Sequence record: PQ805429.1
From: Escherichia phage EK5
Length of the DNA stretch: 64,000 nt
Direction: 5' to 3' (one strand)
The notes under the pieces were generated by a model. It saw only the letters and a program-made list of their open reading frames with translations. It had not been told where the DNA came from and ran no database searches. A program made the translations under genes and the position numbers. Positions 9,329 to 63,947 of this stretch are shown in pieces (the first letter of the stretch is position 1; every line of letters starts with the position of its first letter).

Positions 9329-9395
9329 AACGTCTCCTTTTATAAATAAAAATGTCCTACCCCCTATATACATTATGGAAGGCAGGACTTAGGTC

Positions 9396-27039: not shown

Positions 27040-28098
27040 TTACGCCGCCACCTTTCCCGCAGCAGTGAACAGAACGCCAGAAGCATACGGGTTGCGGTGA
27101 CGCAGACCAACTTCCATTTCAATCATCCACTTCTCGTAAGAACCATCTTTAGCCAGTTCAGTACGTTTCGGAGCACGCAGAACCATCTGAGTCCAGTCAG
27201 CGCTACGGAAGAAGTAAACTGCATCGGTAGGCATCCAACGGTTAACGATGATTTTGTAGCTCTGGCCCAGCGGGTCAGTGATGCTGTTAACTTCGTAGAT
27301 GAACTGCTTGGTGTTCTCAAAGATACGCTTACGTGAACCCTGAGTATTTTCTTGCAGACCAGCAAAGATCTTAGCATGAGCCGGGTTAATCATGATGATA
27401 TCTGCTTCAGAACCAGCGGTATACAGTTGCAGAGTCATATCAAAGATATCAGCTTCGTCGAAACCAATGTTAGTGGTCGGGTTAGAAGCATTCTGTGCAA
27501 CTTTAACAGTTACTGCACCAGTGTCCGGGTCAGCAGGACCATTCTTGGTCTTGTCAACAACGCCACCAGCCAGACCACCGTGAGCACACAGGAACTGGAA
27601 TGCACCAGTCTTACGAGCTGCATGGGTGTCATTCAGACCAACAACAGCAGGATCAGTTGCAGAGTTAGTCAGATACTGGTCAGCCAGAACGTCGGTACGA
27701 GCCTGACCGGACAGAAGGATTTTCTCGAGGTCACGCTTGATCTCTTTACCTTTCTTCTCCAGCTGATACATCAGTTCACGACCACGACCGTAGTTAGCGG
27801 TGGTGTTAGCAGTATCAGAAACACGAACAACCTTACGCAGAATCTGAGTAACGTTAGATTTGATAACAGTCGGTTTCATTTCACCGTCTTCAGCACGAGA
27901 GCCTTCGACGTGTGCGTTATTACCGTCAACGCTTGCCAGTGCATCGGTCTGCCAGCTAAAGATAGTCTGGTTGATAGACTCTTTACCGGTCATAGATACG
28001 AACGGGGTATCCTGAGGGGACAGAACAGAAATCCAGTTAGCAAAAGAAAGTTTTTTACCATTCTGGTCATACGATACAAATAAAGTTGGATTAGCCAT
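27040..28098 (-). CDS. Major capsid protein
   Basis: Follows the acidic scaffold gene; strong SD AGGAG; 352 aa. Confidence 0.7.
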   Translation of the reverse strand: MANPTLFVSYDQNGKKLSFANWISVLSPQDTPFVSMTGKESINQTIFSWQTDALASVDGNNAHVEGSRAEDGEMKPTVIKSNVTQILRKVVRVSDTANTTANYGRGRELMYQLEKKGKEIKRDLEKILLSGQARTDVLADQYLTNSATDPAVVGLNDTHAARKTGAFQFLCAHGGLAGGVVDKTKNGPADPDTGAVTVKVAQNASNPTTNIGFDEADIFDMTLQLYTAGSEADIIMINPAHAKIFAGLQENTQGSRKRIFENTKQFIYEVNSITDPLGQSYKIIVNRWMPTDAVYFFRSADWTQMVLRAPKRTELAKDGSYEKWMIEMEVGLRHRNPYASGVLFTAAGKVAA

Positions 28099-31765: not shown

Positions 31766-33307
31766 TTAGTAGCTCTGATTCCATCTGCTTACGTTTGCCT
31801 CATACAGAGAAGCACTTCCGTAGCTAACGTCATGCTTAGAGCGACCACGATGTGTAACAGAGCACGCTGAATAGCGCATTGCATCCATTAAGTCATCATG
31901 TTCTTTAATAATCTTACCAACCTTACGGTGATATCTAGCTTTCTCTTCGAATAGCTTAGCGTTAGCGGCTGTGTTAAAGACTTTAAAGCGTCCACTCATC
32001 ATTCTTTCTCGGATATCTGTGATTCCCGGTTCTACAAAGAAGTTCTTTTTACCATCCATTCCAATTTTGTTGTAGAAGGTCTCACTCTGTACGTTAACTC
32101 CTGCATTCTTATAGAATTGAGCAACAGATGAACCACTACCTTTCTCAATATTGTCCGCATCGTGCGGTAGGATGACAGGAATCCACTGACCACGACCATT
32201 AATAGCTGGAGCATGATACACTGGAGTAAAGCCACCTTCTTTATATGAGTCGTAAACATAGATAGTATCCGTGTTTGCGTCGTAAGCTGTCCAAACAGCA
32301 GCAGTTGGGTGATCAATACCAATATCAATTGCACAGACACGTTTCCACGTATCAGGAATTTCGAATGGTTCACATTTAATTGTGTCATCCGATACATCAT
32401 ATATCAAACCACTTCCTAACAATGGCATACCTTTCGAACGCATCTCTAACTGCCACGCTGGAATACCTTCAGTCATATCTTTTATATCTTGGTCAGTGAT
32501 ATGTCCACCTAGGTCTGCATGAGCATCCCACCAAGAAGCATTCTGGAAATATAGAGAACCTGTGTTCTCATCCCCTTCACCTTTCATAAATTTATCTACC
32601 AGTTCAGTTAAACCGTTCTCTGGTGTAGCTGTAATTGTAACTAGACCTTTAGTTGTGAGTGTACGTGTGACGCACTGTGCGAATATAGCCATAGACTCGT
32701 ATGGATCTTCTTCGTCTAACCAAATGTAGTCAACTGTTGCACCCATCAATGTGTGTTCACCCTGTTGGGTTGAACGGAATTCTAATGTACTTAAACCGTC
32801 AAACTCTCCTCTTTCATTTTGATGTTTGATTTGTACGATTTGAAGTTTGTTACCATCTCGTTCTATCGTGTCAATGACGATAGCATCACGAGGAATGACA
32901 CCTGTCCCCAATAAATTTGTATCCTTTCCGATAGGTGTACCAAACAATTCCTTTTGCAATACTTTCCTTGTGGAATCCCCTGTAATACCAACTGCCCATG
33001 CTAAGATAGGTCTTTTAAATTTATATCCTGTCCACCAAGTTGGGTAGCGACCTGTGACATGACAAGCAAACTCGTATGCCTCGCTATAAGATTTACCAAC
33101 ACGGTTCGCTGCACACAAGAATCTAAAGCGATGCTTCAATCCTGCTGCATAAAATTTCTTTTGGAAGTCATACGCCTTGAAAGACAAAATCTTATTATAC
33201 TTCCTCCATTGGTCGCGCTCTTTCAACATATTCAATAGTGCTTTCTTTTCCTCTACACTAAGATTGTTACCAGTTAGAGCTTCATAAATTTGTTTATCTA
33301 ATGACAT
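31766..33307 (-). CDS. Terminase large subunit
   Basis: Walker-A-like CAANRVGKS and C-terminal nuclease motif CAIDIGIDHPTAAVW. Confidence 0.85.
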   Translation of the reverse strand: MSLDKQIYEALTGNNLSVEEKKALLNMLKERDQWRKYNKILSFKAYDFQKKFYAAGLKHRFRFLCAANRVGKSYSEAYEFACHVTGRYPTWWTGYKFKRPILAWAVGITGDSTRKVLQKELFGTPIGKDTNLLGTGVIPRDAIVIDTIERDGNKLQIVQIKHQNERGEFDGLSTLEFRSTQQGEHTLMGATVDYIWLDEEDPYESMAIFAQCVTRTLTTKGLVTITATPENGLTELVDKFMKGEGDENTGSLYFQNASWWDAHADLGGHITDQDIKDMTEGIPAWQLEMRSKGMPLLGSGLIYDVSDDTIKCEPFEIPDTWKRVCAIDIGIDHPTAAVWTAYDANTDTIYVYDSYKEGGFTPVYHAPAINGRGQWIPVILPHDADNIEKGSGSSVAQFYKNAGVNVQSETFYNKIGMDGKKNFFVEPGITDIRERMMSGRFKVFNTAANAKLFEEKARYHRKVGKIIKEHDDLMDAMRYSACSVTHRGRSKHDVSYGSASLYEANVSRWNQSY

Positions 33308-33376: not shown

Positions 33377-33850
33377 TTAACTCTCGTCCGCTTCCTCCCC
33401 CTTTTCAGCGTCCTCAGAGTTGTCTTCTTCTGGAGGCATAACGTCGATACCAAGTGCTCCAGTCAAGAAGTCCTTGATTTGTGCATTCAATGATTCTTCG
33501 TTGATTACATTCTCTTCCTCAATCTTAACTTCAACAGAGGCCGCCTTAGGATATACCAGATCTGCAACTTTTGATGCAGCCTTGAATCTAAGATCAGGTG
33601 GAATATTAGGATCTTCGTAAATTTGAATTAACACTTCATCAGGAGACAAATGACTTGCAGCAACACGGTCCAACATTAATTGTGTCAGTTTACCTCTACT
33701 ACCTCTGGGTCGTCCGAATTTATTTCCCTTTTGAAACTTCCCATTGCTTGGGTTCATACCACGGCTTTCGAGTTCTTCCGTTACTCCGGGTAATCTTCCT
33801 GTAATCTCAGCTACCTGTGCAGGCGTGAGTTCTCCGTTTTCTCCAAACAT
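33377..33850 (-). CDS. Putative terminase small subunit
   Basis: Upstream of large terminase; N-terminal HTH-like LTPAQVAEITG; acidic C-terminus. Confidence 0.45.
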   Translation of the reverse strand: MFGENGELTPAQVAEITGRLPGVTEELESRGMNPSNGKFQKGNKFGRPRGSRGKLTQLMLDRVAASHLSPDEVLIQIYEDPNIPPDLRFKAASKVADLVYPKAASVEVKIEEENVINEESLNAQIKDFLTGALGIDVMPPEEDNSEDAEKGEEADES

Positions 33851-33906
33851 TTTATACTCCTTCTACATTATCAACAACACAAAAAGCCTCCCAACGGAGG
33901 CAAATA

Positions 33907-34539
33907 TTACTTACAATCACCAACGGACAGGTTAAACATCTTACCAAGAGCGATCGTCTCACCTTCCCACGGAAGTTCTACGCCCTTCTCTTCCTCTAAA
34001 AGAATAGAGCCGTCGACCAAAAATTTTTCGTAGTCTCGCAGTGCGTCGTCTACTAGCTCACTCTTGTGAATCCACGTAATTGTTTCTGTACCATCCTCTT
34101 CGATTCGAACATCACGATGCCATTCATCTTTGGAGGTAATGTAATCATGGAGCATTTCATATTCAGCTTCTTCAATCATCTCAATCATTGCGCGAGCATA
34201 ATCAGGGAGGTGATCATGTTTAGTAGATTCATATTCAACTACTTCCAGAGTAGAAGGCTTAGCCCGTGCAACTTCTTCAAGTACTTTTGAGCGATCTTTG
34301 TAGTAGTTCTCATATTTATCACCAATAGTACCGACTTGAAGTCCACGGTATTGTTCTACTAAACTCATCATATCTTTCTTCTCCGTAATAGTTGGTTTAA
34401 GAATACTTCCACTATATAAATCTTGTACAGCTAGTCCTGAAATATTTCCCATAGTTTCTAAATGCTGTAAGCTACAACCGGAGCGGCACAGCTGTGAATT
34501 GTACTCGTTAAGGTCCATCGCTTTGATTAAATTATTCAT
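33907..34539 (-). CDS. Hypothetical protein
   Basis: ORF with SD at the head of the leftward block. Confidence 0.4.
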   Translation of the reverse strand: MNNLIKAMDLNEYNSQLCRSGCSLQHLETMGNISGLAVQDLYSGSILKPTITEKKDMMSLVEQYRGLQVGTIGDKYENYYKDRSKVLEEVARAKPSTLEVVEYESTKHDHLPDYARAMIEMIEEAEYEMLHDYITSKDEWHRDVRIEEDGTETITWIHKSELVDDALRDYEKFLVDGSILLEEEKGVELPWEGETIALGKMFNLSVGDCK

Positions 34540-34786
34540 CCATCTCTCCCTTGCTATAATCTTTGTATGTTTCTACTTTGTAAGTGCGGAATGCTCTGAA
34601 GAAGAGCCAACCTAAGCTACTCACATCAATAGTAATATCGAAATCTGTTTCATCATCTAAGTCAACAAGTCGACCTAAACATGTAGCTTCCATCCCTTCT
34701 TCAGAGTCACTGTTGATTACGAAAGCGTATGTCTCTGTTCTGAACCGAGGCACCATCTCTGATAAAAAGTCTAATACTAAATTCAT
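34532..34786 (-). CDS. Hypothetical protein
   Basis: First ORF of the leftward block. Confidence 0.35.
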   Translation of the reverse strand: MNLVLDFLSEMVPRFRTETYAFVINSDSEEGMEATCLGRLVDLDDETDFDITIDVSSLGWLFFRAFRTYKVETYKDYSKGEMDE

Positions 34787-35891
34787 AATTCTTCTCCTCT
34801 GAATAAGAGTATAAAGGGCACATCATAAGACCTACCCGTAAAGGCCACCTCACATTAACACCCGTGAGAATACCTGTATTCATTTTCGTAGTCTTCTTCA
34901 GAGAAGCTACCGTATTCATCTTCTGTCATACATCCCTCTGATAAAGTTAAGACATAAAGGGGACGTCATCTTTGATGACTACTTCACATTAAGGCACCCC
35001 CATAAAGGCCATGTCACGTTAAGGCCTATCCATCCATGTGCTGTGTTTAAGCTTACCACATTTACTACATCTCCAAGTGGACTTATAAAAGGTGTGAACT
35101 CTTTCATCCCCGTAAGCTTTGCGTATCCGATAGTACTCATGATCACATTTGAATTGCTTAATGATTAACTTAATTTTCCACATAAGTTCTCTTTCAACCT
35201 TATATATAAGAGTTTAAAATTCTGATTTGACCGAGTGGGGCTAGCCGCTTCCCGCGCGTTTCCTAAAAAGGGGGAGTCCTCATTTAAAAAAGGGTTATTG
35301 GCAATGCCTTTACCTTCCCTTTCAACGTTCCACCTCTCCCCGTGCCTACTCCCCGTAATTATTCCCCCGTGTATACTACCCAATACATTAGCTACCCGTT
35401 TATTTAGTACCCCTTTAAAGAGTGAGAGAAAGGCTAGCACTGTATAAACTAGTACAGGCACAATCATAACAGGTCTAATAATACCCATAAGTAATAGTCG
35501 CAGCTCCCCATAGTTTGAGTGTAAATAGTTTCAATAGTAATGATTATGAGTGCAATAATGATGTATGTATTAATTAAGTGGAAAGATTATGTTTCTTTTA
35601 ATTGTTTCTTTTATTCTTTCCTTTTTCAGCGTACATGAGCGTAGCGAATGGTCTTTGATGTTTGAGTTAACTAATTATTTAAGTGGTATATTATTACCGC
35701 ACTATCTTGCATGTTTCCCCGTGGTCTGTCCTGCGGTTGTTGTATCCCCGTTTGTCCTGGTCTGTTGGTCTGTTACCCGTAGTGTTATAAAGTAACAATA
35801 AGAAGTAAGCTGATTCTCTGAGTATGGAAAGTTTAGCAAATTAAATTCCTTTAGTTTTCAGTGAGTTATAGGAAAGTTAGAAAATAAATGG

Positions 35892-35919
35892 TTGACAGCC
35901 TTTTCCTTTATTATATAGT
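35892..35919 (+). promoter_or_regulatory. Sigma70-type early promoter
   Basis: TTGACA, 16-nt spacer, TATAGT; about 45 nt upstream of the first rightward gene at 35964. Confidence 0.55.
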
Positions 35920-35963
35920 TGCGATTGTAGTTTGTAGTTTTCATCAACCATAAGGAATATCAA

Positions 35964-36836
35964 ATGTCTAAAGTAGCAATTAACCACTTGAACAAAGCAA
36001 ACGAAAGCCTTTCCTCTTTAGGCTTAACCGTTGGTAGTCCTGATGCGTGGATGGAAAACGAAAGTGCACGTAAAGGATTCAAAAACTCAATCATGTTGGC
36101 TTGCTTGATCATCAATTCTACTGCGAACGCTTTACAGTGTGAAGATGAAAGCACGTTCAAAGAGAACGGTTTTACCGATATGCAGGACGCTATTAATTGC
36201 TACATTCAGGCTAATTTAGATAGCTGGAATCAGAAAGATTGGCCTGAGTCGTGCCGTGATGTGAAAGCTGAATTATCCCGCTTGTCTGTCATGGTTGAAG
36301 CATGGAACAAGAAAAACAAGAAACAGCCAATCAAGCCTACTGTTGCAAGTAAGATTATGAAGTCTGTTAATCTGGCAAGTTATGCACTGGTTGCAGCTAT
36401 TGGTGTTAGTGCACTGGTCACATCTCTTTCTGATAAGGCTATCGCTAGTCCTACTCCTGCAACTGATGCCGCTGATGTTTTCGCTAGTTCCATCAATAAG
36501 GGTTGGATGATTTGCAACGGTGCGGATAGTGATGGAAGTACTATTGTATTAAAAATGAAGTTTAGCAACGTAACTAATGATGGCGTTCTCTTTCAGTCTA
36601 AGACACTAGACAATCAGCCTAACAATGATCTAGTTCTCAAGCGCACCGATAGTGACTCGGATATGGTTACATTTGGCACTGTACAACGTTACGAAGACGT
36701 TAAAGCTGTAACCAATCTAGTGAGTTATGGTCCGGTTAATGAGTCGATGATCGCCACTACCGTTTATAATAACGCTGATAACGCTGTTTATACCGTTCAC
36801 GTTAATTTAGCCAACTGCATTAAGGCTAGTAAGTAA
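35964..36836 (+). CDS. Early protein with central hydrophobic segment
   Basis: First gene after the promoter; predicted TM VNLASYALVAAIGVSALVTSL. Confidence 0.5.
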   Translation: MSKVAINHLNKANESLSSLGLTVGSPDAWMENESARKGFKNSIMLACLIINSTANALQCEDESTFKENGFTDMQDAINCYIQANLDSWNQKDWPESCRDVKAELSRLSVMVEAWNKKNKKQPIKPTVASKIMKSVNLASYALVAAIGVSALVTSLSDKAIASPTPATDAADVFASSINKGWMICNGADSDGSTIVLKMKFSNVTNDGVLFQSKTLDNQPNNDLVLKRTDSDSDMVTFGTVQRYEDVKAVTNLVSYGPVNESMIATTVYNNADNAVYTVHVNLANCIKASK

Positions 36837-36860
36837 ATAACCTATTTTGGGAGTGTAAAA

Positions 36861-37112
36861 ATGGCTATCAAAGAAATTAAGTTATCTAATGGCTTTTCTT
36901 GTTTTGTTGGTGGAAGCTCTATCCTGTTTAATACACTTGATGGTCAGATAATCTTGCCTGTTATCACTTTTTGCAGGATGGAATATCAGCCTCTTAAAGA
37001 TTGGCTAGCCTTTGCTGATTTCGAAATTACCCGCGATGATTTCAGATCAATCTATATTGACGGTGATTTGTCGCTGGCTAACCTGCTTAATCATGGTCTG
37101 ATTGGGGGATGA
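36861..37112 (+). CDS. Hypothetical early protein
   Basis: ORF with SD GGGAG. Confidence 0.4.
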   Translation: MAIKEIKLSNGFSCFVGGSSILFNTLDGQIILPVITFCRMEYQPLKDWLAFADFEITRDDFRSIYIDGDLSLANLLNHGLIGG

Positions 37113-41870: not shown

Positions 41871-42087
41871 TAGGAATATAGCCCCCTCTTTTAGTACTAT
41901 GACGCTCTTTCTGTAGCGTCGTGCCCTCTCCCCATTTGAAGCTTCCGCATAGCCGCCTTTGAGCGGCTTTTTGCGTTGCTGTAAGTGCATTTGCGAGTGT
42001 ATTTATAGCAACGGTCATGTGTTGCTTTCAGGTTTGCCCCGGCTACGGCTGGGGCTTTTTTATGTCTACTGTATAGGAATCTATGAA

Positions 42088-42768
42088 ATGAAAGCAATTG
42101 TATTATCCTCAATCCTAGCTCTGTCCATAATGGCATCGCCTGTTTTTGCTAAAAGTGGAAACAATGGCAATGGCAATGGAGGTTGTGGTGTAGGTCAATC
42201 TACCAATGGTTGCGGTATCGGAGATTGGTTTAAAGGTGAAAAAGGTGATCAGGGAGAGAAAGGCGACACTGGCGCTAATGGCATTGATGGTAAAGATGGC
42301 ATTGATGGAGAACAAGGCGCTCAAGGTGAAAAAGGTGATTCTGGTGCAGATGGTAAGAAAGGCGAAACTGGCCTAACTGGTGCAGCAGGTTTGAATGGCG
42401 TTGACGGATTAAATGGCAAAAACGGTAAAGATGCAGATATGTCTGCCGTTAATGCTAACGCCAAATCCATCAAAGCTCTGGAACAATCCACCAATAAACG
42501 TTTTGCTTCTTTGCAAAAACAAGTAGACCGTAACCGTGATCATGCCTCTGCTGGTATTTCTGGCGTGGCTGCAATGGCTAACATCCCGCAAGTAAGTCAA
42601 GGATCTGCTTTCTCTGTTGGTGCTGGGGTAGGTGCTTACGATGGTGAATCTGCTCTTGCTATTGGTGTTAGTGCTCGTTTCAATGAAAACTTAGTAACTA
42701 AAGCATCAGTGGCAATGACTTCAGAGAGTGACGCTGTTCTGGGCGCTGGTGTAAGTTACGAGTGGTAA
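42088..42768 (+). CDS. Secreted collagen-repeat protein with YadA-like C-terminal anchor
   Basis: Signal peptide MKAIVLSSILALSIMASPVFA; Gly-X-Y repeats; C-terminus ISGVAAMANIP ... VGAGVGAYDGESALAIGVSARF ... GAGVSYEW; real start is internal to the listed 41959 ORF. Confidence 0.6.
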   Translation: MKAIVLSSILALSIMASPVFAKSGNNGNGNGGCGVGQSTNGCGIGDWFKGEKGDQGEKGDTGANGIDGKDGIDGEQGAQGEKGDSGADGKKGETGLTGAAGLNGVDGLNGKNGKDADMSAVNANAKSIKALEQSTNKRFASLQKQVDRNRDHASAGISGVAAMANIPQVSQGSAFSVGAGVGAYDGESALAIGVSARFNENLVTKASVAMTSESDAVLGAGVSYEW

Positions 42769-46227: not shown

Positions 46228-46303
46228 GCACCCTTAGCTCAATGGACAGAGCAGCGACCTTCTAAGTCGTTGGTTACAGGTTCGAGTCCTGTAGGGTGCA
46301 CCA
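46228..46303 (+). tRNA. tRNA-Arg (anticodon UCU, reads AGA), CCA encoded
   Basis: Hand-folded cloverleaf: acceptor GCACCCT/AGGGTGC, D-stem GCTC/GAGC, anticodon stem GCGAC/GTCGT with loop CTTCTAA, T-arm ACAGG-TTCGAGT-CCTGT, discriminator A then CCA. Confidence 0.9.
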
Positions 46304-51702: not shown

Positions 51703-52674
51703 ATGTCAATCTCCACAACGATCGTACCTCTTAATCTTCAACAGGATTTAGGGGAACAGAAGTTCTTAGGTCGTGGGTGCTTCGGTATCCACAACTACAT
51801 GCAAGGTCAAGTCATATATGATGTTAATGACGAATGTGTAATGGAAGATGGGCGCCATAAACGCTTCAACCGTGACATTAACTTGCAATTGGAGATGTTG
51901 AATTACTGGACCCACTCTTTTCATGGTCATGTTCCATCTGATATTGAAAAGAACTTGATTGAAACAGCAGACATTATGAATTCTATGTCTTGCTATCGTG
52001 ATGTATTTACTATCACTTCAGCGAACAGTGTTGCTGTCAATCTTCGTGAGCATCCAGCAGATCAGATCTTCACAGGACTTATGCTCTTCCGTAGTATTCT
52101 GGAAGGGCAATATCGTGGAATGGATTTCCTAGCAGAAGGAATTGAAGACAGGGAAGAGTGGCTGAAGCGTAAACGCATCGGCATCGCTCTAGTGTTAGCT
52201 GGGTTGGGTCGTGACTTCTTCGGTGGGTGGTCTCAACGAGGAAGAGCCAATGGGAGTAGCGAGAGCACCTCTATTGTTATTAACAACAATATGTCAGCAG
52301 CAGCTTTCCTTCCTTTGGTTGTAGACTCTGATGAATATACGAAGCAAGTATGGGTTCAAAACCCCTTCGGTGTTGGCGACAATGAGAATGGTTATGTTCG
52401 TAACCACAACCAAGATGCCTTACGAAGATTTGCTCGTGCTAAAGATCAAGACCCAGACGAGTATGAAACAATGTCAGAGTGGTTAAGACTCTGGTCCAAC
52501 TGTTATGGTCACAAACGTGAAGCAATAGACGACAAGTTGGGAAACATTACGGTACAAAACTTTACATCCCGACTGATTCAAAGAACTGGAGCAGATTCCG
52601 GTCTTACTCTTGAAGAAGTTGGTAACACAATCTCATCTCTCTTTTCTGAACTAGTGGAGTATTACAATGACTAA
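51703..52674 (+). CDS. Hypothetical protein (cassette)
   Basis: 323 aa; overlaps the next gene start. Confidence 0.45.
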   Translation: MSISTTIVPLNLQQDLGEQKFLGRGCFGIHNYMQGQVIYDVNDECVMEDGRHKRFNRDINLQLEMLNYWTHSFHGHVPSDIEKNLIETADIMNSMSCYRDVFTITSANSVAVNLREHPADQIFTGLMLFRSILEGQYRGMDFLAEGIEDREEWLKRKRIGIALVLAGLGRDFFGGWSQRGRANGSSESTSIVINNNMSAAAFLPLVVDSDEYTKQVWVQNPFGVGDNENGYVRNHNQDALRRFARAKDQDPDEYETMSEWLRLWSNCYGHKREAIDDKLGNITVQNFTSRLIQRTGADSGLTLEEVGNTISSLFSELVEYYND

Positions 52675-62633: not shown

Positions 62634-63947
62634 ATGATTGTTATCCCGATTAACCAAATTGAAGATAAGGTTGCTCAACAACCTGATATCACTGTTGGTC
62701 GTCACTTCATTGAACAGTTGATTAACAACAACTTGATTCCAGATGGTATCTGTCCCATCATTACTGGTGGGGCTGTTCGTGATGCTGTCCTTAATAACAT
62801 AGCTCCACATGACATTGATATCTTTATTGTCAGAGGACAAACACCAAGAACTCAAAACACTTTCATCCCAACTGATCGTTGGCAAGAGCTTGGACGGGAG
62901 ATTGAAAGTAATGTGAAGGAATGGCTAGAGTCACAAGATATTGAATATGCATCACTTCTTGCTGAAGCTACAAACGAATCCTATGCTGGGGGTTCTCAAT
63001 TAACATTCACTGATATTATTGAGTTTCAGTGGAATGGGGTTCGTATCCAATTCATGTTTAATTATCCTACTTCTATTGAAGAGGTATTGGATAATTTTCC
63101 TATGATGTGCCGTGGTGCGATGACTCTTGACAACTTATTCATGACTTCTCACGGATATTTGGCTATGACTTCCCCTTGTCCAGTGGTTGTCTCTAGTCGT
63201 GAAATCAGGTATGTTCACAAGAAGTGGCCTAACTCGCAAGTGTTGAGATTTTCCTCTCCAGCAGCTGCACATCAATACATGGCCCAAACTCGATATCTTC
63301 CCACACCTCAACCGGTTAGCCAACTGGTCAACGAACGAGGTCAGGTTGCTCTTATTGAGGATACAACAAGTGCTCAATATTGTGTTAACCGAGACATGAG
63401 TCTATTCTTTGGGATCCCTTATGAAGAGATTCTGTTAATGTCAAGCGTTCACGGGTCTGGTCAGATTCGTGCGTATTGGTCTGAAGGGTTGACAAATTTA
63501 ACAACTAACACGGGTGGTGATCTGCTTGGTCGAGAAGAGGAACCTAACCGACACAATGCAATTGAAGGGGTCTTTGTAGCCCCTGCAATGCGTAGAGCAC
63601 AAGAGTCACGAAGAGTAAGCCCTACTCGTAGAACATCTTTTGAAGAAACTCTCGGTATTACAAGTGATTCTATGGAGCGATGGATGGCTAGACCCTCTCG
63701 TGGTCGACCAAACGGCTTAACTGTTAGCGCACGTCAGTTCTCTGGTCAGGGTTTCGCTGTTGGTGATATCAACGCACCTGTTAGGGCTGTGTGGACTGAT
63801 GAAGATATGGAACAGGATTTGGGAGATAGTCTCGCTGATCAATTTGTTGCCAACAACCCTGAAGTGTTGCAGCCTCAAACCCGTATAGTTCGGTTTGCCG
63901 ATGAAGCGGGTCGTGGAATCTCTTTTGACATGGAAACAAATAACTAA
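62634..63947 (+). CDS. Pol-beta superfamily nucleotidyltransferase-like protein
   Basis: ITGGAVRDAVLNNIAPHDIDIF fits the G-[GS]-x(9-13)-D-h-[DE] motif and resembles the GGAVRD head motif of CCA-adding/poly(A) polymerases; ATG 2 nt after the exonuclease stop. Confidence 0.45.
   Translation: MIVIPINQIEDKVAQQPDITVGRHFIEQLINNNLIPDGICPIITGGAVRDAVLNNIAPHDIDIFIVRGQTPRTQNTFIPTDRWQELGREIESNVKEWLESQDIEYASLLAEATNESYAGGSQLTFTDIIEFQWNGVRIQFMFNYPTSIEEVLDNFPMMCRGAMTLDNLFMTSHGYLAMTSPCPVVVSSREIRYVHKKWPNSQVLRFSSPAAAHQYMAQTRYLPTPQPVSQLVNERGQVALIEDTTSAQYCVNRDMSLFFGIPYEEILLMSSVHGSGQIRAYWSEGLTNLTTNTGGDLLGREEEPNRHNAIEGVFVAPAMRRAQESRRVSPTRRTSFEETLGITSDSMERWMARPSRGRPNGLTVSARQFSGQGFAVGDINAPVRAVWTDEDMEQDLGDSLADQFVANNPEVLQPQTRIVRFADEAGRGISFDMETNN

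Follow-up and report, generated by a model that had tools for sequence, protein, structure and literature searches.

Savalia et al. are said to have described, in 2008, a 193-bp direct terminal repeat (DTR) in phiEco32, and Dunn and Studier reportedly described, in 1983, the 160-bp DTR of T7 with flanking short-repeat arrays named SRL/SRR. To our knowledge, the function of the CCTAAAG arrays of T7 has never been pinned down, so that an analogy with T7 gives architecture, not function. Arrays of short sites recognised by small terminases are found at packaging sites, such as the R sites of lambda cosB and the pacL/pacR boxes of SPP1. Sequence-specific binding has been described for the TerS of PaP3 (PMC7672466), and in T5 the injection-stop region of the terminal repeat has 8 DnaA boxes in an ordered arrangement (Davison preprint 10.1101/866236). 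The record of Cronobacter phage A24, whose TerL is 60% identical to that of EK5, the phage examined here, begins with 230 bp in which we found four TTATCCACA DnaA-box consensus sites; two of the four belong to the 127-bp DTR of A24. Among the Kuraviruses, termini were established by restriction mapping and primer walking for phiEco32, from 454 read ends, which were blunt, for SU10, by PhageTerm for Paul and from whole-genome nanopore reads for YF01 (PMC9965538; PMC4281155; PMC6787329).

Here we compare these systems with a locus of Escherichia phage EK5 (PQ805429.1) within a window, by which we mean the whole analysed stretch of 64,000 nucleotides. The window is a Kuravirus (phiEco32-like) genome with about 95% identity to Shigella phage ShigP1 and Escherichia phage phiEc_1, and 97-98 Kuravirus records match the region in question. 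An original prediction had described this region as divergent and intergenic, with strand-skewed short direct repeats, and had offered a packaging signal, terminal-repeat-adjacent sequence or a replication origin as its function.

The genome-end junction of EK5

We hold with high confidence that 34.8-35.96 kb is the end-to-end join of Kuravirus genome ends in a record assembled or deposited permuted. The reading as a whole, in which this DTR junction carries co-oriented arrays that most likely act as a polar cis-signal, we consider probable. The junction and the packaging genes comprise the following features.

35243..35435, no strand: single collapsed copy of the DTR, 193 bp, by homology to the phiEco32, YF01 and Paul DTRs
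35240..35245, no strand: boundary GCT|AGC, with a predicted terminase cut at 35242|35243, the right genome end in phiEco32 orientation
35433..35438, no strand: boundary GCT|AGC, with a predicted cut at 35435|35436, the left genome end in phiEco32 orientation
31766..33307, minus strand: TerL, 99-100% identity to annotated Kuravirus TerL
33377..33850, minus strand: putative TerS, 157 aa, from a published HHpred match to PaP3 TerS (PMC9965538)
33857..33870, minus strand: gp36-type late promoter TAATGTAGAAGGAG, preceding the putative TerS

The stretch 35243-35435 is 92.8% identical, end to end, to the DTR of phiEco32, a sequence of 193 nt repeated exactly at the two ends of that record. Homologous sequence of full or near-full length, with 86-97% identity, is present in 13 more Kuravirus junctions, and in YF01 and Paul it carries a DTR annotation. 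By alignment and gene order, the sequence to the left of 35243 corresponds to the left-end unique DNA of phiEco32 and that to the right of 35435 to its right-end unique DNA. The contexts of the two boundaries, TGACCGAGTGGGGCT|AGCCGCTTCCCG at 35242|35243 and GAGAGAAAGGCT|AGCACTGTA at 35435|35436, are letter-identical to the PhageTerm-derived boundaries of Paul. The records of phiEco32, ES17, WFI101126 and YW01 start at, or a few bases from, 35435|35436, and those of phiEco32 and YF01 end at the homologous boundary bases, where that of phiEco32 also starts. Thus, DTR homology, boundary identity and flank matches together support a permuted record with its physical ends here, a possibility that the original prediction had raised; the comparison with related phages that it had proposed as a check placed their ends at this site and found the repeats kept in 16 relatives. 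The window contains one copy of the DTR and, judging from its relatives, EK5 virion DNA should carry the repeat at both ends; the true genome would then be 193 bp longer than the assembly, with 35435|35436 as its proper opening point. Permutation and the collapse of one DTR copy affect genome-length and synteny comparisons as well as annotation, since the minus-strand open reading frame 35165-35488 and others called over the join are artefacts.

Both DTR boundaries have GGCT|AGC in common. The CT|AG core at 35242|35243 is kept in most relatives. As a boundary core, CT|AG is not universal, with CT|GG in 172-1, CC|AG in phiEc_1 and CT|AT in TH06, rybdy3 and EC.W2-6. Neither the cohesive ends of a cos site nor the variable permuted ends of a headful pac site agree with the relatives, whose records have the exact 193-nt repeat at fixed ends, and SU10 reads indicate blunt ends. 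No conserved ATG-initiated reading frame of at least 40 aa starts inside the DTR, and its predicted DNA fold was not better than that of shuffled sequences (z +1.2). The YF01 authors reported DTR positions of about 130-170, in phiEco32 orientation, as highly conserved (PMC9965538); this part is 35266-35306 of the window and contains the TAAAAAGGGGG / TAAAAAAGGG pair, which the SU10 authors described as CCCTTTTTTA repeats (PMC4281155). A search of IMG/VR for the DTR core returned 2 contigs only. Sequence (86-97% identity), 193-nt length, boundaries, flanking DNA and TerL are all shared with the DTR region of phiEco32 and other Kuraviruses, from which EK5 differs in nothing essential. The 193-bp terminal repeat of the genus is already published, and the region is another isolate of a known system.

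The Kuravirus putative TerS resembles PaP3 TerS by HHpred (PMC9965538). We took the assignment from the literature since the 157-aa reading frame had no match among Pfam, NCBIfam and PDB sequences, and its single-sequence AlphaFold model (pLDDT 57) was too poor for a fold search. In TerL, identity falls from 92% to 61% with nothing between; the next tier, at 56-62% identity, consists of Grimontviridae together with Proteus, Aeromonas and Vibrio phages, and more distant relatives are LUZ24/PaP3-like (39%) and P22-like (32%). The record of Salmonella phage SeKF_80 has neither a DTR nor the motif array.

Co-oriented motif arrays in and around the terminal repeat

The short repeats of the original prediction, namely five CCCCGT, three GGTCTGT and three TCAC(A/G)TTAA copies (the last at 34850, 34984 and 35014), were all found where it had placed them, and its strand skew was borne out in that every copy of the three sets lies on the plus strand. 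A sixth CCCCGT is located at 35108, and ACCCGT variants extend the series, so that three arrays can be listed.

34834..35113, plus strand: left-flank copies, ACCCGT at 34834 and 34860 and CCCCGT at 35108, the last inside a small gene
35338..35399, plus strand: intra-DTR array, CCCCGT at 35338, 35351 and 35365 (spacing 13 and 14 nt) and ACCCGT at 35394
35717..35780, plus strand: right-flank A-poor array, CCCCGT at 35717 and 35746, ACCCGT at 35775, GGTCTGT at 35723, 35759 and 35767, and GTCCTG at 35728 and 35754

The repeats are therefore not just beside a terminal repeat, as had been proposed: the DTR is indeed located here, but three of the five CCCCGT copies lie within it. Similarly, the A-depleted, pyrimidine-rich stretch described earlier does have a skewed composition, but it consists of two separate patches, one C-rich and G-poor (35306-35412; C 39%, G 9%, A 19%) and the other A-poor (35701-35790; A 10%, T 41%), with 31% A in the 265 bp separating them.

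Over the whole window CCCCGT is not enriched (10 copies, 9.2 expected), and six of the ten copies fall within 644 bp. Clustering was tested with 300 dinucleotide-preserving shuffles, none of which reached six CCCCGT in 650 bp (maximum 3), ten CCCGT in 950 bp (maximum 5), three GGTCTGT in 60 bp (maximum 2) or three TCACRTTAA in 180 bp (maximum 1). At the EK5 junction, all ten copies of (C/A)CCCGT are on the plus strand, distributed over the DTR and its two flanks, and across 17 Kuravirus junctions CCCGT is present, in these same three places, in 9-12 copies on the plus strand and none on the minus strand. The polarity of the array does not change across the point of divergent transcription, and this agrees better with a polar DNA process than with one tied to transcription.

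Of 15 close relatives, 14 have the intra-DTR copies at DTR positions 96/109/123/152, as does Paul, and in SR02 the copies are shifted down by one base; the intervening spacers vary among relatives. The diverged Bas89, which is about 70% identical here, has ten CCCCGT copies with diverged spacers, and four of these copies are within its DTR, again at other spacings. The right-flank array is kept in close relatives with one to two copies of ACCCGTAG; in NJ01, MN05, 172-1 and Bas89, CCCCGT is retained and the remainder of that array is rearranged. On the left, a 21-nt block around 35108 is identical in two otherwise diverged alleles of the small gene. Since this CCCCGT is part of a gene, coding constraint could account for its conservation. 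The Kuravirus papers covered here make no mention of the co-oriented (C/A)CCCGT array or of the shared GGCT|AGC boundaries.

Early leaders on the two sides of the junction

The sequence around the DTR and its arrays contains the following genes, repeat units and candidate promoters.

34812..35022, plus strand: local unit TAAAGGSSAYNTCAY, repeated four times (34812, 34839, 34955, 35003), found only here in 64 kb
35019..35183, minus strand: small conserved early gene, phi32_1 homologue, 54 aa, Cys-rich with C...CxxC (phrog_7696, E 6.6e-17)
35199..35238, minus strand: conserved block abutting the DTR, by alignment; candidate sigma-70 promoter reading leftward into the left-end early frames
35506..35581, plus strand: conserved block A, by alignment; holds a candidate extended -10-like element TGCAATAAT at 35551-35559 (promoter scan)
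35673..35701, plus strand: block B, AATTATTTAAGTGGTATATTATTACCGCA, conserved by alignment; carries a candidate promoter (promoter scans), either the extended -10 type TGGTATATT or TTAACT-16-TATTAT
35892..35919, plus strand: strong sigma-70 early promoter TTGACA-16-TATAGT, 11/12 consensus positions
35964..36836, plus strand: first rightward early gene, phi32_128 homologue, 290 aa (phrog_36409, E 3e-200)

On the left side, TCACRTTAA proved to be the 3' extension of the TAAAGGSSAYNTCAY unit (0.24 expected in 64 kb; 0/100 shuffles), which occurs in 2-5 copies in relatives, at indel junctions of small-ORF cassettes. Copies 1 and 3 of TCACRTTAA contain the TAA stop codons of leftward small reading frames. 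The unit thus sits between small leftward early ORFs, and the region is not purely intergenic: the conserved minus-strand gene 35019-35183, also annotated in ShigP1 and phiEc_1, lies inside it, and more mini-ORFs are possible. Nor does the neighbour on the left appear to be the late block that had been supposed. In the published assignment for SU10, genes 69-125 and 1-3 are early and a late promoter lies between CDS3 and CDS4; by this homology and the position of the late promoter, the small leftward ORFs would belong to a left-end early leader. The block 35199-35238 is almost invariant in 16 of 16 aligned junctions including Bas89 (35211-35237 nearly so), and the SU10 authors considered the homologous stretch a potential sigma-70 promoter upstream of CDS1; it matches the consensus weakly and was not reported by our promoter scan.

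Two readings of TCACRTTAA as a regulatory site were rejected. Read as TTAAYGTGA, it offers AATGTG or AACGTG, which miss the gp36 consensus AATGTA / tAATGTATA expected about 6-8 nt upstream of a start; true gp36-type matches are located elsewhere, AATGTATA at 9367, 26448 and 43566 and TAATGTAGAAGGAG at 33857. As a CRP-type site it provides, judged by eye, a TGTGA half-site only.

On the right side, a non-coding leader of about 530 bp contains the two promoter-like blocks, the A-poor array and the strong early promoter. Block B is almost invariant in 15 close relatives and recognisable in Bas89. The promoter at 35892-35919 is kept in relatives, and its homologue in SU10 has been listed as the early promoter preceding CDS125; the EK5 promoter is predicted to drive the rightward early genes. 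An Rfam search of 34300-36300 with E up to 1 gave no match, and neither the left leader (minus strand, z -1.5) nor the right leader (plus strand, z +0.1) stood out from shuffles as a structured RNA. No tRNA was found in the junction region, the only one of the window being a tRNA-Arg at 46228.

Candidate roles of the arrays

Our best guess is that the arrays are a polar packaging or end-recognition signal. In such a scheme, replication would yield concatemers with one DTR per junction, as in T7-type phages, the terminase would make its cuts at both GGCT|AGC boundaries, 35242|35243 and 35435|35436, and DNA synthesis would duplicate the repeat, leaving a blunt-ended DTR at each virion end. The one-strand (C/A)CCCGT array would serve as the polar cis-signal that marks and orients the junction, read by a DNA-binding packaging or end-processing protein for which TerS is the prime candidate. 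We put forward this putative TerS or packaging role of CCCCGT tentatively. The more specific proposal, that the array lets the Kuravirus terminase, via its PaP3-like TerS, find and orient the junction before making two blunt GGCT|AGC cuts, is doubtful enough to be offered as a possibility.

The comparison with T7 bears on this proposal. The collapsed T7 junction (NC_001604) contains 13 CCTAAAG on one strand and none on the other, with three inside the DTR, two on one side and eight on the other. The two phages have in common a short exact DTR, a motif of 6-7 nt that is present in 10-13 copies, in the DTR and both flanks, and is confined to one strand, early promoters for the host RNA polymerase a few hundred bp inside the end, and a gp4-type primase-helicase. 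They differ in the motif, CCTAAAG versus CCCCGT, and their DTRs are non-homologous, which makes T7 an architectural analogue and not a member of the same system. Moreover, the T7 terminase lineage is distinct from that of EK5 TerL, and Kuraviruses have no phage RNA polymerase, an enzyme that has been implicated in T7 packaging according to the SU10 authors (PMC4281155). With the small-terminase arrays of lambda, SPP1 and PaP3, EK5 shares repeated short sites flanking the terminase cut, the pairing of TerS with these sites being a candidate one here. Those systems, however, produce cohesive ends or headful cuts rather than exact blunt DTRs, and the number and spread of the motifs (about 950 bp) are larger in EK5.

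Alternatively, the arrays might act in DNA entry or end handling, with a host or phage protein that binds the co-oriented motifs of the first-entering end and pauses ejection, or protects this end, until the terminal early promoters are transcribed, comparable to the injection-stop region of T5 and to the transcription-dependent entry of T7. We consider this unlikely. The right-flank array does lie about 475-540 bp from the predicted physical end, upstream of the 35892-35919 promoter, strict motif polarity is also compatible with directional entry, and the terminal DnaA-box arrays of T5 (10.1101/866236) and A24 set a precedent, sharing with EK5 ordered short motifs in or beside a terminal repeat and a non-coding leader near the end. 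The motif of those arrays, however, is the DnaA box TTATCCACA; the EK5 window has no DnaA-box cluster, and its junction has no DnaA boxes. The EK5 motif is also present on the left-end side and inside the DTR. We know of no E. coli factor with a CCCCGT site.

A replication origin within the region, or coinciding with it, is improbable, and the original prediction gained no support on this point. CCCCGT would then represent iterons, 35436-35700 an AT-rich unwinding element and the GGTCTGT block primase priming sites. The cumulative GC skew has its minimum at 35-36 kb, but the coding strand changes at the same place, so that the skew is not diagnostic of an origin. The stretch 35436-35700 has 69% A+T and lies between motif arrays, and it also carries the promoter-like blocks. 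A T7 gp4-like primase-helicase is encoded at 60291-62081 (PDB 5ikn, E 1.5e-32), but the alignment leaves out the primase zinc-binding domain, which sets template specificity. Likewise, the GGTCTGT block contains four (G/T)(G/T)GTC, the T7 type of primase site, and five CTG on one strand, but (G/T)(G/T)GTC is equally or more dense elsewhere (five in 90 nt at 27474, four at 63453), and we rejected a T7-type primase-site cluster since its density is not exceptional. DnaA boxes (TTATNCACA, at most one mismatch) number 63 in the window against 73 expected, with three one-mismatch matches in the region that form no cluster. No initiator gene was identified, and motif copies spread through the DTR and its two flanks are more than an origin would require.

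Equally improbable, in our estimate, are operators for the terminal early promoters, through which, for example, a phage regulator of the early or middle class would shut off the two divergent early units, with the TAAAGGSSAYNTCAY (TAAAGG...) units as regulator sites or as processing signals between small early ORFs. The arrays adjoin promoter-like conserved blocks and a homology-supported early promoter, and within 64 kb the TAAAGGSSAYNTCAY units are confined to this region, where they precede the Shine-Dalgarno sequences of small ORFs by about 20 nt. Early transcription of phiEco32 is actively shut off, but the published shut-off acts through gp79 on RNA polymerase, not through DNA sites (PMC12276001). 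The orientation of CCCCGT is constant across oppositely transcribed units, four motif copies lie in the promoter-less DTR, and TTAAYGTGA fails the gp36 consensus. Operators or processing signals in RNA are further opposed by the insignificant RNA structure of the leaders (z -1.5 and +0.1) and the lack of an Rfam match.

Chance, low complexity or a contig-join artefact can practically be discarded: CCCCGT has no window-wide enrichment and the junction is an assembly-collapsed repeat, but the clusters exceed 300/300 shuffles, and 16 relatives that were sequenced independently, among them some with mapped ends, have the same motifs in the same places, so that the conservation data refute this reading.

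With the terminal repeat of the genus known, the one mildly new element is a CCCCGT array that is conserved and strand-polar and that matches the terminal arrays of T7 in architecture; it provides a way to test how phages with an exact DTR recognise their ends and duplicate them. If the polar packaging or end-recognition role is true, the CCCCGT array would be a convergent counterpart of the T7 CCTAAAG arrays, and Kuraviruses would provide a second independent system for testing what terminal arrays do.

Probable physical ends of the genome

BLAST queries with window segments 34000-37000 and 34800-35960 against GenBank phages matched 97-98 records, all from Escherichia and Shigella podophages of the genus Kuravirus (phiEco32-like, Gordonclarkvirinae), with ShigP1 and phiEc_1 the closest at about 95% identity. 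Several of these records have their own end or start within the query region: those of phiEco32, SU10 and YF01 terminate exactly at window position 35243, and those of ES17, WFI101126 and YW01 start at about 35435-35441 in window coordinates. The phiEco32 record carries an exact 193-nt direct repeat at both ends, which aligns over its full length with 35243-35435 at 92.8% identity and has one copy in the window. Leftward of 35243 the window continues as phiEco32 positions 194 onward, through genes phi32_1-4 to the terminase, and rightward of 35435 as the unique phiEco32 DNA that lies before the right-hand repeat, as far as gene phi32_128. Because the two flanks continue as opposite ends of phiEco32, this homology indicates that the window carries a head-to-tail genome junction with one collapsed copy of the direct terminal repeat (DTR).

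The homologous stretch is labelled 'direct terminal repeat' in the YF01 record and 'direct terminal repeat predicted by PhageTerm' in that of Paul, whose boundary contexts are identical to those of the window (TGACCGAGTGGGGCT followed by AGCCGCTTCCCG, and GAGAGAAAGGCT followed by AGCACTGTA). Mapped 193-bp DTRs have been published for four relatives, phiEco32, SU10, Paul and YF01, the termini being located by restriction mapping and primer walking in phiEco32, by a sharp drop-off of 454 read ends, indicating blunt ends, in SU10, by PhageTerm in Paul and by full-length nanopore reads in YF01, and 192-193-bp DTRs have been assigned by similarity in 30 members of the group (PMC9965538; PMC4281155; PMC6787329). 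Since the repeat is homologous to these annotated and mapped DTRs, the original prediction of a permuted record with its physical ends here is supported; the termini of relatives do not map elsewhere, and the repeats are conserved among them. Junctions with the 193-bp DTR have been described before in Kuravirus, so the novelty of this feature is low.

To compare junctions, we aligned 16 of them: those of the window and of 14 other records, and that of phiEco32, which was reconstructed from the two ends of its record. Paul was added later as the seventeenth. Both DTR boundaries of the window fall at the centre of GCTAGC, with GGCT/AGC common to both (the slash marks the boundary), and the CT/AG core is usual, though not universal, among relatives. 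All 16 aligned junctions keep GTTTAAAATTCTGATTTGACCGAGTGG almost unchanged immediately outside the left boundary; GAGTGAGAGAAAGGCT, immediately inside the right one, is nearly invariant, and we consider these blocks candidate cleavage-site contexts. For SU10, its authors also list the left-boundary stretch, which lies upstream of CDS1, as a potential sigma-70 promoter. In EC.W2-6, 172-1, NJ01 and MN05, an insertion of about 42 bp at this boundary duplicates the GTTTAAAATnCnGATTT block, which abuts the DTR and whose duplicate keeps the 17-nt spacing to a TATATA element; the duplication would fit a second copy of a weak leftward promoter. Mechanical ORFs at 35165-35488 (- strand, 107 aa) and 35235-35447 (+ strand, 70 aa) span the DTR boundaries and are impossible on a linear virion genome; some relatives have comparable ORFs annotated as CDS, examples being 1-6bf and Paul (CDS_001).

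Sequences flanking the terminal repeat

The region had been described as intergenic; it is not purely so, a conserved gene lying in its left part (34800-35242). The right part (35436-35963) is non-coding; relatives show indels there that are not multiples of three. It contains the A-poor motif array, and no Rfam family or unusual RNA fold was found in it.

Features flanking the DTR
34855-34929, - strand: possible 24-codon highly acidic ORF, MTEDEYGSFSEEDYENEYRYSHGC, with a good Shine-Dalgarno sequence
35019-35183, - strand: conserved Cys-rich gene of 54 aa (phrog_7696, E 6.6e-17)
35506-35581: strongly conserved block with an extended -10-like element, TGCAATAAT
35673-35701: strongly conserved block with an extended -10-like element, TGGTATATT
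35892-35919: near-consensus sigma-70 promoter TTGACA-16-TATAGT (promoter scan), corresponding to the early promoter listed for SU10 CDS125

The acidic ORF is about 95% conserved even in Bas89; about half of the relatives lack it, as a cassette. The three predicted copies of TCAC(A/G)TTAA were recovered at 34850, 34984 and 35014, all on the + strand, and form the 3' portion of a longer local unit, TAAAGGSSAYNTCAY, which occurs at 34812, 34839, 34955 and 35003 and nowhere else in the 64 kb (0.24 expected). Relatives have 2-5 copies of this unit, three of them in 14-nt tandem in SGF2 and DE5; the copies lie at the edges of indels by which small-ORF cassettes come and go, and two small ORFs have their TAA stop within TCACRTTAA. 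We regard the units as probable repeats of the left-end early leader, with a cassette-boundary or regulatory role, and as having no relation to the terminal repeat itself. TCACRTTAA was rejected as a promoter for the phage sigma factor gp36, as its transcribed-strand form TTAAYGTGA mismatches the consensus AATGTA / tAATGTATA, true matches to which are located elsewhere in the window. An 18-nt mini-hairpin, GTCATCTTTGATGACTAC (34965-34982), varies as a presence/absence indel: the window, TH06, phiEc_1, ShigP1 and EC.W2-6 have it, phiEco32, 1-6bf and FH3 lack it, and in SGF2 it is inserted into a different TAAAGG unit.

Two further loci were seen in the window. An early-block ORF of 269 aa (41959-42768, + strand) encodes collagen triple-helix repeats together with a YadA-like membrane anchor domain (E 2.9e-19), and such a trimeric-autotransporter-like protein is unexpected for a lytic podophage. 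A cluster at 52667-57310 (+ strand) holds phiEco32-type COOH-NH2 ligase, amidoligase and glutamine amidotransferase genes, and the Pfam family that matches bears phiEco32's name.

A co-oriented CCCCGT array

All five CCCCGT copies of the original prediction were confirmed by motif search (35338, 35351, 35365, 35717 and 35746), a sixth was found at 35108, and the three GGTCTGT copies lie at 35723, 35759 and 35767, all on the + strand. Across the whole window CCCCGT is not enriched (10 copies versus 9.2 expected); six of the ten are packed into 644 bp. Against 300 shuffles of the window that preserved dinucleotide content, every observed same-strand cluster exceeded the shuffle maximum: six CCCCGT per 650 bp (maximum 3), ten CCCGT per 950 bp (5), three GGTCTGT per 60 bp (2) and three TCACRTTAA per 180 bp (1). 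The skewed composition is likewise present, not as a single stretch but as two patches, 35306-35412 (C 39%, G 9%) and 35701-35790 (A 10%), with ordinary A-rich DNA between them.

The window, 14 close relatives and Paul have CCCCGT at DTR positions 96, 109 and 123 and ACCCGT at position 152; in SR02 each lies one base lower. The spacer bases between copies vary. To the left of the DTR lie one CCCCGT and two ACCCGT. To its right, between +470 and +545, every genome carries two CCCCGT and one or two ACCCGT, which in most sit among GGTCTGT and GTCCTG within the A-poor block; in NJ01, MN05 and 172-1 this block is rearranged and the CCCCGT copies are retained. Bas89, only about 70% identical here, has ten CCCCGT, four in the DTR and three per flank, with unrelated spacers. 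No minus-strand CCCGT occurs in any of the 17 junctions, of about 1.4 kb each. Since copies persist where spacers diverge, it is the motif itself that is conserved, and not its surroundings. A block of about 21 nt around CTTTCATCCCCGTAAGCTTT (35099-35119, within the 54-aa gene) is identical in two otherwise substantially differing alleles, and may preserve either a DNA site, the CCCCGT copy, or a recombination joint.

The polarity of CCCCGT is uniform across the point at which transcription diverges. Together with conservation of the motif over its context, this points to a protein-recognised DNA signal of a directional DNA process, not of transcription.

Possible role of the array and comparison with other phage ends

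Most likely, concatemers would carry one DTR per junction, the terminase would cut at both GGCT/AGC sites, and DNA synthesis would supply the second copy of the DTR, a step also proposed for T7. For the packaging machinery, the co-oriented CCCCGT copies would indicate where the junction lies and which way it points. Their obvious reader, which we name tentatively, would be the small terminase (TerS):

33377-33850, - strand: putative TerS, by published HHpred similarity to PaP3 TerS only

Our own searches for the TerS identity of this gene gave no confirmation. Directly upstream, the sequence at 33857-33870 (- strand) reproduces exactly the gp36-type late promoter core of SU10, TAATGTAGAAGGAG, and by this homology marks the start of leftward late transcription.

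In the T7 junction, which we rebuilt in collapsed form from NC_001604, a 160-bp DTR is accompanied by 13 CCTAAAG on one strand and none on the other (three in the DTR, two on the right-end side, eight on the left-end side). The architecture is the same as in the window, whereas motif and DTR sequence are unrelated and the large terminases (TerL) belong to different lineages, the next-closest to the window's being LUZ24/PaP3-like and P22-like. By this analogy, the junction appears to work like a T7-type one outside the T7 sequence family. The TerL of Cronobacter phage A24 (MW343794, Grimontviridae) shares 60% identity with that of the window. A24 has an exact DTR of 127 bp, and in place of CCCCGT its first 230 bp hold four perfect matches to the DnaA-box consensus, TTATCCACA (at 41, 62, 154 and 221, two within the DTR), with TTATGCA variants lying further in. 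The arrangement resembles the array of DnaA boxes described in the injection-stop region of T5 (preprint 10.1101/866236).

An entry-pause or end-protection signal is a weaker explanation of the CCCCGT array. So is a replication origin with priming sites (the original prediction had named an origin): the phage encodes a T7 gp4-like primase-helicase, but the array shows no unusual density of T7-type priming sites, a DnaA-box cluster is absent from the window and the GC-skew minimum falls where the coding strand switches. Operator sites for the terminal early promoters are a weaker explanation too, given a polarity that ignores the transcriptional divergence.

In the literature searched, which lay outside the primary phiEco32 papers, we found no description of the co-oriented CCCCGT array or of its convergence with T7. 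What remains of interest is a conserved, strand-polar CCCCGT array that is convergent with the terminal arrays of T7. By analogy, terminal arrays of lineage-specific short motifs seem to be a recurrent feature of such ends, and the proteins that read them probably differ between lineages.
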